A DNA stretch of 64,000 nt from Clostridia bacterium (GCA_017469445.1 JAFUGK010000015.1:75964-139963), one strand, 5' to 3'; counted from the stretch's first letter, positions 5,739-55,385 are shown. Program-made: numbers and translations. Notes: generated from the sequence alone by a model not told the origin.

Positions 5739-5826
5739 AAAACTGACATTACTAATTCATATGGGTAGGGGACATTTCTTAACACTAAAGAAGTGACCTT
5801 GGGGAAAGAAGTGTCCCCTGTCATTA
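5739..5826 (-). repeat. Dispersed intergenic repeat, family B copy 1 (GGGGACACTTCTTTCC ... TTAAGAAATGTCCCC hairpin element)
   Basis: Reverse-complement match to copies at 13079..13176, 44923..45016 and 55292..55385. Confidence 0.7.
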
Positions 5827-5838
5827 GAAAGGTAAAAA

Positions 5839-7020
5839 ATGGATTATAAATTTTTATTAGATATCGGATTAATTATTTTAGTTGTAAAAGTTTTAGAATT
5901 AATTACAAAAAAATTTCATGCTCCAAGAATTTTAGGTTCTCTGCTTTCTGGAGTTCTATTAGGACCAGCAATTTTTAATATTGTTCAGTCTAGTGCTCCT
6001 ATAGAGTTCATTTCCAAAATAGGAATTATATTAATAATGTTTGTAGCTGGTATGGAAACTAGTTTAAAGCATTTCTTTGCGGGTGCAAGGAAATTTGCTA
6101 TAATTGCCCTTCTTGGTGTTATAGTTCCACTAGCATTAGGATTTTTATATAGTTTTTCATATACTTTTGATTTGAAAGTAAATTTATTCTTTGGAGTTGT
6201 TATTACCGCAACTTCTGCAAGTATTACTTTGCAATCTTTAATTGAAATGAAAAAAATCAAAACAAGTGTTGGTACAGCTATTTTAGGTGCTGGTGTTGTA
6301 GACGATATTATTGGAATATTATTTTTAACAATAATTATTAATTCAGGTCATTTAAATCTAGGCGGTCTAATAGTAGTTGGCATAGAAATAGCTATATTCT
6401 TCCTAGTTGCCATCTTACTTGCATATATAATGCACCATATATTCCAATTTTTTGAAAGGAAATATCCTCCAAACGAAAAATTACCAATTTTTTCACTTGC
6501 GATTGCCTTAATATTTTCATATTTTGCAGAAAGATTTGGTGTTAGCGGTGTAATTGGTGCATATATTGCAGGTTTAGCCATTGGTAATACAAAACAAGCT
6601 CACTACATAAAAGAACATGTAGACTCTCTTGTATATATGTTTTTTGCTCCAATATTCTTTGCAAGTATAGGACTAAAATTGCAAACACTAGCTCTTCCTT
6701 TTAATACTTGGTTATTTGTTATATTTTTCGTAGTCATAGCTATTTGTGGTAAATTAATTGGAAATGGTTTTGGTGCTAAAATATGCGGATACTCTAAGCT
6801 AGAATGTGTTCAAATTGGATTAGGTATGGCTACTAGAGGCGAAGTTGCTTTAATTATGGTCGAAGAAGCATTAAAAGTAAATCTTATTAATTATGAGGCT
6901 TTTTCATTAATTGTTATCAGCATTTTACTTATTGCAATTATAAGTCCAATACTGTTTACATTAAGTTTTAAACCTTCTTTTGAAAAAAATTTAGAAAAGC
7001 CAAGTGTTTCTGCTGGTTAG
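5839..7020 (+). CDS. Cation:proton antiporter, CPA2 family (NapA/KefB-like)
   Basis: 393-aa polytopic membrane protein with a typical CPA2 N-terminus (ILGSLLSGVLLGP). Confidence 0.7.
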   Translation: MDYKFLLDIGLIILVVKVLELITKKFHAPRILGSLLSGVLLGPAIFNIVQSSAPIEFISKIGIILIMFVAGMETSLKHFFAGARKFAIIALLGVIVPLALGFLYSFSYTFDLKVNLFFGVVITATSASITLQSLIEMKKIKTSVGTAILGAGVVDDIIGILFLTIIINSGHLNLGGLIVVGIEIAIFFLVAILLAYIMHHIFQFFERKYPPNEKLPIFSLAIALIFSYFAERFGVSGVIGAYIAGLAIGNTKQAHYIKEHVDSLVYMFFAPIFFASIGLKLQTLALPFNTWLFVIFFVVIAICGKLIGNGFGAKICGYSKLECVQIGLGMATRGEVALIMVEEALKVNLINYEAFSLIVISILLIAIISPILFTLSFKPSFEKNLEKPSVSAG

Positions 7021-7086
7021 AATTTGACATAATATATAAATTCATTATATAATATAGGTACATACTAAAATAAGGAGGTTGTAATT

Positions 7087-7308
7087 ATGCTCAGTTACAA
7101 AAGTCGGAAGCTAATTAAGATTTTGCAGCAAATTACAAATTCTCACTCCACTATAGTGGAGGATTTGGCACTGCAAGCAAGAGAAGCCGTTATTTCAGAG
7201 CATTTGAGTCATTTACTTCTGGAACTTGCGGATAATCCGCATCGTTTTGAAGTTCATGATGATCTGCTCGATGAGATTATCGAACGTCTCGAAAGTGAAA
7301 TGATTTAA
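7087..7308 (+). CDS. Small hypothetical protein (73 aa) with atypically high GC, possible HTH fragment
   Basis: RBS aaggagg. Local GC is about 40% against about 27% for neighbours. It is followed by terminator 7336..7368. Confidence 0.35.
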   Translation: MLSYKSRKLIKILQQITNSHSTIVEDLALQAREAVISEHLSHLLLELADNPHRFEVHDDLLDEIIERLESEMI

Positions 7309-7335
7309 AAGTTTCTTTGATTGCTTGCGAAAAAT

Positions 7336-7368
7336 GGAGTTGTGATTCACAACTCCTTAATTTTTTTC
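7336..7368 (+). terminator. Intrinsic terminator
   Basis: Hairpin ggagttgtg-att-cacaactcc followed by tttttttc. Confidence 0.55.
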
Positions 7369-7370
7369 AA

Positions 7371-7400
7371 AAAAACAGATGCTTAAAAAGCATCTGTTTA
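7371..7400 (-). terminator. Intrinsic terminator downstream of rpsR
   Basis: Minus strand shows hairpin aaacagatgc-ttttta-agcatctgttt followed by a T-run. Confidence 0.55.
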
Positions 7401-52663: not shown

Positions 52664-52724
52664 ATATACTTCCTTTTTATATTTTTTCTTACTTTATCAT
52701 AAGGCAACAATTTTATCAAGTATA

Positions 52725-53867
52725 TTAAAGTTCTATTATTTTTTCCCATGGCAAATCTTTATCCCCAAAATGTCCATAGTTTGTAGTTTGCTTGTATATT
52801 GGGGTTTGCAATCCGAAATAATTGATAATGCCTCTTGGTGTTAAATCGAATTTATTATTAATTTTTTGTATTATTTCTTCTTCTGGAATAGTATTTGTTC
52901 CAAATGTATCAACATAAATGGAAACCGGCTTAGCAACACCTATTGCATATGAAAACTGTATTTCGCATTTTTTAGCTAATCCATTTGCCACTACATTTTT
53001 AGCAATATGTCTTGCTATATACGCAGCTGATCTATCTACTTTTGTAGGGTCTTTACCAGAAAAAGCTCCTCCTCCATGTCTTGCATATCCACCATAAGTG
53101 TCAACTATTATCTTTCTACCTGTTAATCCACTATCTCCTAGAGGTCCACCTATTACAAATCTTCCTGTTGGATTTATATAGTATTTTGTATTATTATCTA
53201 GTAATTCAGGTGGTATTATAAATTCTATTACCTTTTCCTTTATTTGGTCTTTTAACCAAGTTAAATCTACATCTTCTTCATGTTGAGTAGATACAACAAT
53301 AGTATCTACTCTTATTGGTATTTCATTTTCGTATTCAATAGTAACTTGAACTTTCCCATCTGGTCTTAACCCTTCAATTATATTTAGCTTTCTTACTTCT
53401 GCTAATCTTTTAGATAACTTATGTGCAATTGAAATTGGAAGTGGCATAAGCTCTTTTGTTTCATCTATTGCAAATCCAAACATTATTCCTTGATCTCCTG
53501 CACCTTCTGAAAAAACATTTTCTCCTGCCTTATCCTCAAAAGATTTATCTACACCCATTGCTATATCTTTAGATTGCTTTGATATATTAACAATAATTTT
53601 GCAAGTTCTATAATCTATATCTAAATTTGCATCTCCGTATCCCACTTCTTTAATAGCATTTCTTGCAACCTCTTCTATATTTACATTTGCTGTAGAAGTT
53701 ATCTCACCTGAAATATACACTTCTCCCTTAGATGCCATTGTTTCACATGCTACTCTTGCATTTTTGTCTTTTGATAGGAAACTATCCAAAACACTATCTG
53801 ATATGTAATCACATAATTTATCTGGATGCCCTTCTGTTACACTTTCTGATGTAAATAATTTTTTCAT
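52725..53867 (-). CDS. metK: S-adenosylmethionine synthetase
   Basis: [20 protein letters not shown] and [16 protein letters not shown]. Confidence 0.9.
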
Positions 53868-53906
53868 TTTAATACCCTCTTTCTTACTATTTTCATATGT
53901 TTCAAG

Positions 53907-54078
53907 ATTATTATTTCAAAAAGAAAAACCTTTATACTTTTAAGTACAAAGGTTAATAATTTTTAAAATTTTAATTATCATCCAAAGTACTTTATACTTT
54001 GTCGGTATTAGCACCTTATTTTCATAGGTTGCTGTGGAGTCATAAAGCCGATTCTCTCGTCCACTCTTGATAACATAT
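53907..54078 (-). promoter_or_regulatory. SAM-I (S-box) riboswitch with terminator, leader of metK
   Basis: Minus strand reads UUAUCAAGAGUGGACGAGAGAAUCGGCUUUAUGACUCCACAGCAACC...GGUGCUAAUACC...GGAUGAUAA, then hairpin AACCUUUGUACUUAAAAGUAUAAAGGUU and a U-run. Confidence 0.75.
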
Positions 54079-54172
54079 TTGGTTTATTATATTTGCTTTT
54101 CTAGTTATTGTCAAGCATTTTCTATATGAACTAAAGGGACATCTCTTTGTTCATAAGCTCACTTTCGTTTGC

Positions 54173-55268
54173 TTATTGGATTAAAGACTTAGATACTGTT
54201 ATAACTGGGCGGACCCCAAAGTTGCTGTCGTCGACGTAGTTATAGAAGTTGGGGTACAAGTCGCCGTAGTCGCCGCGCACACCCCACACGTAGTCGACGT
54301 CGCTCCCATCAGCAGAAGAAGAAAGCCAATAACATAAATAATTGCCATAAGTATTAGTATTTGCTATTCCATTTATCATAACTGCATAACTACTTTGTAA
54401 TGTATTTGCTTCTCCATATGTTAATAATCTTCCTTCTGCTCCAGATCCTATTGTACTTGTTGCATAATCTCTTGCTCTCATTATTGCATTATTTGCTTTA
54501 GTTTGTGCAGGGTTAGCTGCTGCTGCCACAGCATCTGTTGTATATGTATTTAAATCTTCAGTATAACTGCCCCAATAGTTTGTACTCGAAAATTCACATG
54601 CTGTTTGAGAATAAGTTGCATTTGCTTTTTGATAGTATTTTCCTGTTGTTTCATCTGCATTTTTATCTAAGTTATATTTTGCTAGTAATGTTACTTCTTC
54701 TTGTGTATTACTACTATTTTCTAATACATAAAATTCTTCGCCTCTTATAAATACTTCATTTCCTATTGATAATACAGATGCAGTTGTATAGTTCCATATT
54801 GCATATAATGTTAAATCTTCACTTAGACTTACACTATCTCCTGGCGCATAACTTGTTCCAGTTCCATTTGCTTCTGTGTTCCATTCTTTAAATACTCTTG
54901 CATTTCCTGGCGCTGTAAATCCATTTATTGCTATAGTTGATGCTGTTGCTTGTTCCATTGTTCCTGTTCCACCATTTGCATTGTATGTTATTGTATAGTT
55001 TTGAGTTTGTGGTGTATCATCATCTCCTGTTTCTCCTACTTGCTCTCCTCCCATGTATTTGGCGAATAAGTCTTTTACCTGGTTTAATACCTTTTGGTCT
55101 TCATTTGCTGATGCATTGTATTTTTCTGCTGTTTTATTTGCATTATCTATTATGCTTGTATTTCCTGTTAATGTAGCTAATGCTACTCCTGCTAGTATCA
55201 ATAACACTATTATTGTTATTACTAATGCTATTAGTGTAATTCCGTCTCATTTCTTTGGTAATCTTCAT
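54173..55268 (-). pseudogene. DGR variable target protein 1: pilin-like TM, Flg_new repeat, C-type-lectin/DUF1566-like C-terminal VR. +1 frameshift after codon 8
   Basis: RBS ggagga precedes ATG at 55268 (MKITKEMR). One extra C at about 55244 shifts into GITLIALVITIIVLLILAGVALATL... The track ORF 54173..55207 begins at an internal GTG. C-terminus carries VR1. Confidence 0.7.
54205..54326 (-). repeat. DGR variable repeat VR1
   Basis: Aligns to TR 57907..58019. Nearly all differences fall at template adenines; there is a 6-nt and a 3-nt indel and one or two non-A changes. The 3' flank matches VR2 for about 60 nt. Confidence 0.75.
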
Positions 55269-55291
55269 AATTTTTCCTCCTATTCTTGTAA

Positions 55292-55385
55292 GGAGACACT
55301 TCTTTCCCTATGGACATTTCGTATGTGTTAAGAAATGTCCCCTACTTATGAGCTAGTGATGTCAGTTTTCAAAGTTATCTTCTTA
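55292..55385 (+). repeat. Dispersed repeat, family B copy 4
   Basis: GGAGACACTTCTTTCCC...TTAAGAAATGTCCCCTAC...GAGCTAGTGATGTCAG. It lies directly upstream of the target-1 RBS. Confidence 0.7.

Follow-up and report, generated by a model that had tools for sequence, protein, structure and literature searches.

Two families of hairpin repeats

A 64,000-nt stretch of the genome of an uncultured gut Clostridia bacterium (GCA_017469445.1, JAFUGK010000015.1:75964-139963; 28% GC), hereafter the window, carries dispersed hairpin repeats of two related families, A and B, which we have analysed together with a gene for a Y1 transposase lying on the same contig. An earlier note on the window had described the repeats as intergenic elements resembling repetitive extragenic palindromic (REP) sequences or miniature inverted-repeat transposable elements (MITEs), and its copies, four of Family B and three of Family A plus one composite, were all located where it had placed them. 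Coordinates are those of the window unless one of the loci fetched for comparison (L-numbers) is named; among these, L239 is a 20.8-kb piece of the same contig outside the window.

5709-5838, plus strand: Family B copy B1 (hairpin 5768-5818), before the Na+/H+ exchanger gene (5839-7020)
13064-13187, minus strand: Family B copy B2 (hairpin 13087-13137), between the gltX stop codon and the DUF951 start codon (13063)
44898-45023, minus strand: Family B copy B3 (hairpin 44924-44974), before the ABC transporter gene (42690-44897)
55271-55390, minus strand: Family B copy B4 (hairpin 55292-55342), before target gene 1 of a diversity-generating retroelement (DGR)
10808-10853, minus strand: Family A copy, made of GGGGACGTTTC, a hairpin (AAATGAG/CTCATTT) and GGGACACATCT
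15855-15900, minus strand: Family A copy with a perfect 11-bp stem, CCAAATTGGGA/TCCCAATTTGG
45074-45153, plus strand: composite Family A copy, made of GGGGACGTTTC, hairpin 1, a degenerate middle box ACGTCCTC, hairpin 2 and GGGGACACATTT
46443-46488, minus strand: Family A copy in the gap that separates the feoB stop codon (46498) from the start of the GH25/LysM gene (46391)
54136-54146, plus strand: lone box GGGACATCTCT in a small unrelated hairpin, between the stop codon of DGR target 1 and the promoter of a SAM riboswitch

The hairpin of Family B and its conserved flanks make up blocks of ~100-125 nt. In B1, a -10-like TAAAAT (5709-5714) is followed by a conserved block (5739-5767) ending in GGGTAG, then by the hairpin with its arms GGGGACATTTCTT and AAGAAGTGTCCCC, and finally by a tail, CTGTCATTAGAAAGG, that contains the ribosome-binding site (RBS); the arms of the B3 hairpin are degenerate (GGGGATA.../...GTCCCT). 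Family A had been said to abut the stop codons of minus-strand genes, and copies do adjoin those of RNase J (stop codon at 15903, with the 15855 copy beginning 2 nt past it), feoB and GH25, although the composite copy at the GH25 stop codon is antisense to that gene. The 10808 copy likewise begins 2 nt past a stop codon, that of the open reading frame (ORF) 10856-11227. What the note had taken for a partial Family B copy near 54124 proved to be a single box at 54136-54146, and its origin as a remnant is uncertain. The SAM-I riboswitch (74 bits; 53972-54076, minus strand) has its promoter just downstream of this box.

A chance origin of the repeats is excluded by the number of matches: the 16-mer core occurs 7 times in the window against 0.08 expected, and the ends GGGACAC(A/T)TCT, correctly noted before as common to both families, give 11 matches to GGGACACWTCT against 0.35 expected. 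Moreover, 10 of the 11 GGGGAC hexamers of the window fall in these elements. A wider count had been proposed as a check, and within the reach of the contig it supports dispersed repeats: L239 adds two A sites and two B sites, which brings the total to 6 A and 6 B, that is, 12 sites in 89 kb of genome or about one site per 7 kb. The minus strand of the window is the leading strand (GC skew of the plus strand, -0.23) and six of the eight window elements are read on it; this fits either a gene-strand bias or access to the lagging-strand template, between which the data cannot separate.

Anatomy and covariation of the repeats

Both families are built on one box of 11-12 nt, GGGGAC(A/G)nnTCT. In Family A a box G, GGGGACGTTTC, a hairpin of 5-11 bp and a box A, GGGACACATCT, follow each other, so that the boxes are direct repeats outside the stem. 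In Family B the box itself, present as two inverted copies, supplies the arms of a hairpin of 13-14 bp (GGGGACATTTCTT ... AAGAAGTGTCCCC); before this hairpin there is usually (G)TAG, and after it CTGTCA/TTACA and an RBS. An exact fit to the motif GGGGWSAS is GGGGACAC, a sequence that the arms of Family B share with the composite A copy (45142) and with most A copies from metagenomes.

The stems of Family A covary. A hairpin of at least 5 bp stands between the invariant boxes in 108 of 113 distinct copies from this genome and from metagenomes, and it is formed by at least 10 different complementary stems, such as TGGACA/TGTCCA, TGAGTCA/TGACTCA, ACTGACA/TGTCAGT or AATTGGGA/TCCCAATT. The perfect 11-bp palindrome that had been ascribed to the family as a whole is found in the 15855 copy only; in the other A copies the stems differ or are imperfect, and the differences are compensatory changes. 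With boxes that do not vary and stems that covary, it is the sequence of the boxes and the structure of the stem that are conserved. In Family B, 98.6% of the stem cells are paired in 15 copies of B and of a subfamily, B', from this genome and from metagenome-assembled genomes (MAGs) of other Clostridia. Three stem pairs are changed on both sides, B' having GGGGATGTATCTTA / TAAGATGCGTCCCC. As arm position 7-8 is a U.G pair in 13 of these 15 copies, the B stem pairs perfectly on one DNA strand only, the one with the sense of the gene that follows. At the hairpin foot, GTAG is found in 7 of the 15 aligned B copies and nTAG in 9 of them, while Family A has GGGGACGTTTC at this place; since GTAG is absent from A and present in only about half of B, we do not file the elements as classical GTAG REPs.

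Several known classes of element were tried and rejected. An operator for a transcription factor does not agree with the Clostridia elements, because their inter-arm distance varies between 17 and 37 nt and their stems covary; GGGACA-N4-TGTCCC palindromes seen in Gemmatimonas and in Verrucomicrobia MAGs may be operators, unrelated to the repeats. A CGTC-tagged REP superfamily without transposase has been described (PMC3733652), and the reverse complement of the A box does contain CGTC, but the dimensions of stem and loop and the CCA tail misfit. Searches with Rfam 15, at the gathering threshold and at E <=10, returned nothing meaningful at the repeats, where the matches at E <=10 were microRNA-type and at chance level; the only RNAs found in the window were the SAM-I riboswitch and 6S RNA (86 bits; 19804-19992, minus strand). 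A literature search for the box as a literal sequence returned unrelated eukaryotic primers only.

The hairpins could also be chiefly RNA 3'-end elements, either intrinsic terminators or stabilisers against exonucleases, and roles of this sort had been proposed for Family A in the earlier note. Three A copies indeed begin 2-9 nt past stop codons, and classical REPs stabilise the upstream mRNA (PMC3733652). However, the stem is not followed by a T-run in any of the sequences, terminator scans of 5600-5900 (B1) and of 44850-45200 (B3 and the composite A) gave no terminator-like site, and a canonical terminator distinct from the repeat stands after the 10808 copy, all of which speaks against the terminator-like role. 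Furthermore, the A copies of this genome stand in both orientations to the upstream gene (4 sense, 2 antisense), those of other lineages often lie directly upstream of an RBS, and an RNA stabiliser would not need conserved boxes outside the stem. The hairpins may have an RNA-stabilising effect, but we consider it unlikely that they are chiefly 3'-end elements.

A Y1 transposase gene between inverted Family A copies

A frameshifted gene of the Y1_Tnp family (PF01797), found by chance near the FeoB homologue of a relative, was used as a tblastn probe against the fetched loci. Its matches were one Omnitrophica locus and six loci whose retrieval had relied on nothing but the DNA pattern of Family A. 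Of the 107 loci retrieved in this way, 6 carry a Y1 gene no more than ~250 nt from the element. In L172, L129/L196, L182, L202 and L092 (Omnitrophica UBA1562), inverted copies of the element stand on both sides of the Y1 gene, ~20-250 nt away, with the ACATCT box pointing to the gene; L169 shows an element on one side only because its contig is short.

A profile search with these repeat-flanked Y1 proteins led to P0295, a protein of 257 aa encoded on the 477,320-bp contig of the window. Its gene occupies 41978-42751 of ena:ERZ27256838:k141_227631, a record in which the window corresponds to 55032-119031; it lies between GH15 and radA, ~12.3 kb beyond window position 64000 (10001-10774 of L239). 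Inverted Family A copies with the stem of this genome itself, AATTGGGA/TCCCAATT, are present on both sides of it. The upstream flank is a double A unit (L239 9874-9960, plus strand) that overlaps the GH15 stop codon, and the downstream flank is a single A unit (L239 10774-10820, minus strand) that extends from the transposase stop codon to the radA RBS. On both flanks the ACATCT boxes face inward to the gene and the GGGGACGTTTC boxes outward. We saw one copy of the gene in the 89 kb of genome. The order GH15-Y1-radA is also found in L172, and the Y1-radA junction in L169, L182 and L129, an arrangement that may reflect vertical inheritance of a single-copy gene. Beside the Y1 gene no tnpB was seen, and tblastn with the IS200 and IS608 TnpA proteins (approximate query sequences) against 1.6 Mb of loci gave no match.

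Pfam Y1_Tnp was matched by four repeat-flanked homologues (L172, L129, L202 and L092) with E values of 1e-13 to 1e-17, and PF01797 is the precomputed database annotation of P0295. Its best NCBIfam match is the REP-associated tyrosine transposase, with 71.1 bits against 20 bits for IS200, and the Omnitrophica L092 protein, with 85.9 bits, is above the RayT cut-off of this family. Both the HUH motif (NHIHLL; NHxH) and the tyrosine of YIHxNP (Y119-I-x-x-N-P) are invariant in 31-35 homologues. Sequence-only searches of the PDB gave no significant match; however, the AlphaFold2 model of P0295 (pLDDT 86) has as its top Foldseek match in the PDB 4er8_A (E 2.5e-6, TM score 0.74 on target), which is the complex of the E. 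coli REP-associated tyrosine transposase (RAYT) with a REP hairpin; next in rank are the transposases of IS608, ISDra2 and IS200. P0295 is longer than the E. coli RAYT (165 aa), and in the model residues ~196-256 form an extra C-terminal helical domain like a helix-turn-helix (HTH), with a conserved GxSxxQxARIxG motif; HTH Pfam families are among the precomputed annotations of several homologues. P0295 is thus, by class, a REP-associated tyrosine transposase of the Y1 (HUH) type, and it bears an additional C-terminal helical domain.

Five other Y1 candidates (P0138, P0130, P0203, P0194 and P0183) proved to come from other species and to have a different box, GGGACGGTTC; they make up a sister clade. 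Inverted GGAAA..GGGACGGTTC..TTTCC units stand on both sides of its genes, and these units too are dispersed, with ten boxes in the 20.8 kb of L230. The box types of the Y1 clades are GGGGACGTTTC/GGGACACATCT, GGGACGGTTC and GGGGACAYTTCT. Many clusters of this Y1 transposase come from contigs of only ~1 kb, which is consistent with assemblies breaking at the flanking repeats.

These results bear on the MITE half of the earlier description, by which the elements would be deletion derivatives of an insertion sequence (IS) of the DDE type, moved through their terminal inverted repeats (TIRs). The elements are short, multi-copy and intergenic, and the inverted arms of Family B measure 13-16 nt, as such an origin would have it. 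Nevertheless, inspection of the flanking sequences showed no target-site duplication at any of the 12 sites in 89 kb, and none of the sites is embedded in an IS. The boxes of Family A are direct and not inverted, neither a DDE transposase nor a parent IS was seen among the Pfam-scanned ORFs of the window or the called genes of L239, and the gene that the repeats do flank encodes a Y1 HUH enzyme. We regard a MITE origin as very improbable.

Occurrence in other lineages

In metagenomes, 107 loci have the exact two-box pattern of Family A, individual contigs of 200-390 kb contain 7-9 copies or more, and inverted doublets like those called REPINs are present in the related lineages L128, L152, L158 and L162. 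For Family B, species-representative genomes were scanned with an exact two-arm pattern, which gave more than 107 loci among the matches listed; several MAGs of Bacillota and Omnitrophota have many copies, as singles, inverted pairs and tandem arrays. As the arms are fixed by the pattern, arm conservation among these matches is circular, and since operator-like matches occur in other phyla the scan shows breadth rather than homology of each match. The boxes themselves are conserved between lineages and between phyla, and the clade of GGGGAC-box transposases extends over Bacillota and Omnitrophota at the least, perhaps also over other phyla.

Closer to the window, relatives with 78-81% identical FeoB have only 0-1 boxes per 21-22 kb, and therefore the families are lineage-specific expansions and not conserved regulatory sites. 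Orthologous empty sites were sought in these relatives through the FeoB neighbourhoods, and none was recovered as synteny is lost. One relative with an 81% identical FeoB has a frameshifted Y1 gene (L223 19348-20118) and one box in 21 kb, which would fit a repeat population that is lost once the transposase decays.

Family B upstream of start codons

The earlier note had placed Family B in 5' leader or promoter regions, and the rule is stricter than that. All eight B and B' sites of this genome, namely the four of the window, L239 6062 and 13340, and L240 4270 and 16662, are sense to the gene, and their hairpins stop 20-29 nt short of its start codon. Family B does occur on both strands of the window, as had been stated, but relative to the next downstream gene the four copies are all alike, and B1 keeps this layout although its gene is on the lagging strand. 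In MAGs of other Clostridia (L071, L106/L013, L021, L009 and L083/L114), unrelated genes are preceded by the same series of ..GTAG, hairpin, CTGACA, RBS and ATG. At the 5' edge of the block the -10-like TAAAAT is conserved, and promoter-like matches overlap it or lie just upstream. An upstream site of the type TTGAAA-17-TAAAAT is plausible as the only promoter candidate for Family B; promoters for alternative sigma factors (sigma-B, sigma-K or hexamers like those of extracytoplasmic function factors) were rejected as their spacing and bases differ between copies.

Two strains of the same species differ in these elements. Strain L239 lacks the B' copies found at L240 4270 and 16662; here L239 4204-4352 corresponds to L240 4217-4351, and L239 16497-16781 to L240 16482-16736. 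At both places the intergenic sequences of the two strains are unrelated, one of the alternatives being a Family B' element, and the replacement spans exactly from the region of the upstream stop codon to the common RBS. Family B appears to be kept only where it forms a sense-oriented leader just upstream of an RBS, and either only sense insertions beside an RBS survive selection or the element has been co-opted as a portable leader.

It has to be considered, then, whether Family B acts first of all in cis, as a module of the 5' leader or promoter that a set of operons has in common, be it a regulatory RNA or an mRNA-stabilising element, in which the likeness to REPs would reflect ancestry (exaptation) and not current mobility. 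The uniform orientation and spacing of the eight sites, the behaviour of B1 on the lagging strand, the recurrence of the architecture before unrelated genes in other MAGs, the U.G pairs that make the stem perfect on the mRNA-sense strand only and the -10-like TAAAAT with its promoter-like neighbours can all be cited for it. On the other hand, the genes downstream are unrelated (an antiporter, DUF951-deoD, an ABC exporter, a pilin-like DGR target and an RNase J paralogue), Family B has no Rfam match even at E <=10, it is replaced by unrelated leaders in another strain, one copy (L239 6062) has no 5' block, and its arms are the same box as in the repeats that flank the transposase. This explanation, which is not exclusive of a REPtron, is possible, and we hold it tentatively and with more doubt than belief. 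It is rather unlikely, although worth stating, that Family B is a portable leader and promoter cassette built on a REP hairpin, set in sense before an RBS by the Y1 transposase or by recombination between copies and swapped by strains; if true, a natural 'leader swapping' would rewire the expression of unrelated genes, the DGR target included.

An AT-rich inverted repeat of TAGTGAATAAT-like units lies at 55531-55641, upstream of B4, and such units are also present at ~4290-4340 of L239, in the leader that L240 replaces with a B' element. They may be a third repeated leader family.

Interpretation of the repeats and proposed mechanism

We interpret Families A and B as the non-autonomous REP/TIR-type repeats of a REPtron (TIRtron) system, and we assign to this reading a probability of about 0.77. 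The earlier view of two related families of dispersed, intergenic, REP-like hairpins with a common box was right, and it has become much stronger because a Y1 transposase of REP-associated type, presumably their cognate enzyme, is encoded on the same contig with inverted Family A copies around its gene. As GGGGACAC fits the motif of TIRYT genes exactly, the system is no new kind but a further example of a known one, in an uncultured bacterium of the gut Clostridia.

Most likely, the repeats were moved as single-stranded hairpins by P0295. By analogy with E. coli TnpA(REP) and with the IS200/IS605 transposases, P0295 would recognise the hairpin and the adjacent GGGGAC(A/G) box on one strand of single-stranded DNA, and it would cleave and rejoin the DNA there in the manner of TnpA(REP) and of IS608/ISDra2. 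Copies could thereby spread to intergenic sites without target-site duplication. Once transcribed, the elements would plausibly place stable hairpins at the 3' ends of mRNAs in the case of Family A, or in their 5' leaders in the case of Family B.

Several points weigh against this interpretation. The 71.1 bits of P0295 are below the 80-bit cut-off of the RayT equivalog (NF047646), and the steps of the mechanism are all taken from distant homologues, the identity to 4ER8 being 15%. Family A does not have the GTAG tetranucleotide of classical REPs, and its outer box, GGGGACGT, fits GGGGWSAS at only 6 of 8 positions. In this genome the transposase is flanked by Family A only, and the link of Family B to the enzyme rests on the common box, the Omnitrophica case and the strain polymorphism. 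Neither the strict sense orientation of Family B nor its fixed distance to the start codon is expected of random transposition. Copies within the genome are 60-85% identical, and the population may therefore be old or inactive. Finally, the counts of repeats and of transposase genes rest on 89 kb of genome.

The retroelement and other neighbouring features

The DGR extends over 54173-59367 and comprises the following parts:

54211-54297 and 58263-58349: variable-region-like copies, in two paralogous pilin-like target genes with an N-terminal methylation motif
55796-56950, minus strand: reverse transcriptase
56934-57278: bAvd
57271-57771: MutS_I-like ORF
57907-57993: template-like repeat

In the region 55207-55270, the ATG at 55270, which follows the RBS supplied by B4, is shifted by +1 against the frame of the pilin-like ORF of DGR target 1. 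This ORF has a conserved N-terminus, GITLIALVITIIV, with in-frame TGA codons before it, and strain L240 has the same sequence; the out-of-frame ATG could point to a pseudogene, to a site of frameshifting or to an error of assembly. DGR target 2 is preceded by a (TA)n run of ~12 units (~59446-59470), which may be prone to slippage within a promoter region. Next to the DGR are a Mob_Pre relaxase (59836-61221) and a serine recombinase (62490-63266), neighbours that suggest an integrated mobile element around it. In the fetched loci, a difference between strain variants was also seen downstream of the antiporter gene, where an M23 peptidase and a 3691-aa LPD1/ART-PolyVal protein replace rpsR-ssb-rpsF in L002/L004 as compared to L001/L003.

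Comparison with known systems

To our knowledge, REP/RAYT systems have been studied almost entirely in Proteobacteria. A text search of PMC3733652, PMC2817692 and the Bertels preprint found no mention of Firmicutes or Clostridia, and in the papers that classify Y1 and RAYT proteins Clostridia are named only for the distribution of groups and not for REPs.

With the IS200/IS605 family (IS608, ISDra2), the system described here shares the HUH Y1 catalytic fold, the lack of target-site duplications and, by analogy, subterminal hairpins that would be recognised on one DNA strand. In contrast to that family, a single transposase copy was seen here, in a conserved chromosomal position and with no tnpB seen adjacent, and it is the short elements, not the gene, that are multi-copy.

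Classical REP/REPIN-RAYT systems (E. coli TnpA(REP), Pseudomonas REPINs and RAYT groups 2 and 3 as of Bertels et al. 2017) also resemble the present one. One Y1 copy stands between inverted palindromic repeats, the repeat is dispersed extragenically, related lineages have REPIN-like inverted doublets, target-site duplications are absent and the best structural match is 4ER8. Unlike classical REPs, Family A has no GTAG at the hairpin foot and about half of the B copies do; what is conserved here, whatever the lineage, is an 11-nt box outside a variable stem (inside the loop in the sister clades); and P0295, unlike classical RAYTs, carries an additional domain at its C-terminus and does not reach the RayT equivalog cut-off.

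TIRYT genes are flanked by inverted repeats with GGGGWSAS, which form dispersed families of moderate abundance (Di Nocera, De Gregorio and Rocco 2013, PMC3733652). In the classification of Quentin et al. (2018; PMC6006769), TIRYTs are TnpA_Y1 subclass 2.1, with long proteins, a C-terminal HTH and flanking GGGG[AT][CG]A[CG], and no REP-like sequences were found beside their genes. P0295 agrees with this class in being longer than classical RAYTs by a C-terminal helical, HTH-like extension, its gene lies between inverted repeats with GGGGWSAS (here GGGGACAC), and these repeats are also scattered singly, in dimers and in clusters. It differs in that the flanking units are true hairpins, with the stem between direct boxes or as one long hairpin, and are dense, in its hosts, which are uncultured gut Clostridia (and Omnitrophota), and in the conserved GH15-radA position of the gene. 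The HTH-bearing Y1 class is the second largest subclass and was reported without REP-like partners; a member of it in gut Clostridia now has a dense, structured repeat population, built on an 11-nt box that is common to Omnitrophota, where the same box serves an Omnitrophica RAYT. These repeats mark intergenic regions that differ between strains, and they provide a concrete substrate on which the role of this large class of Y1 enzymes can be tested.

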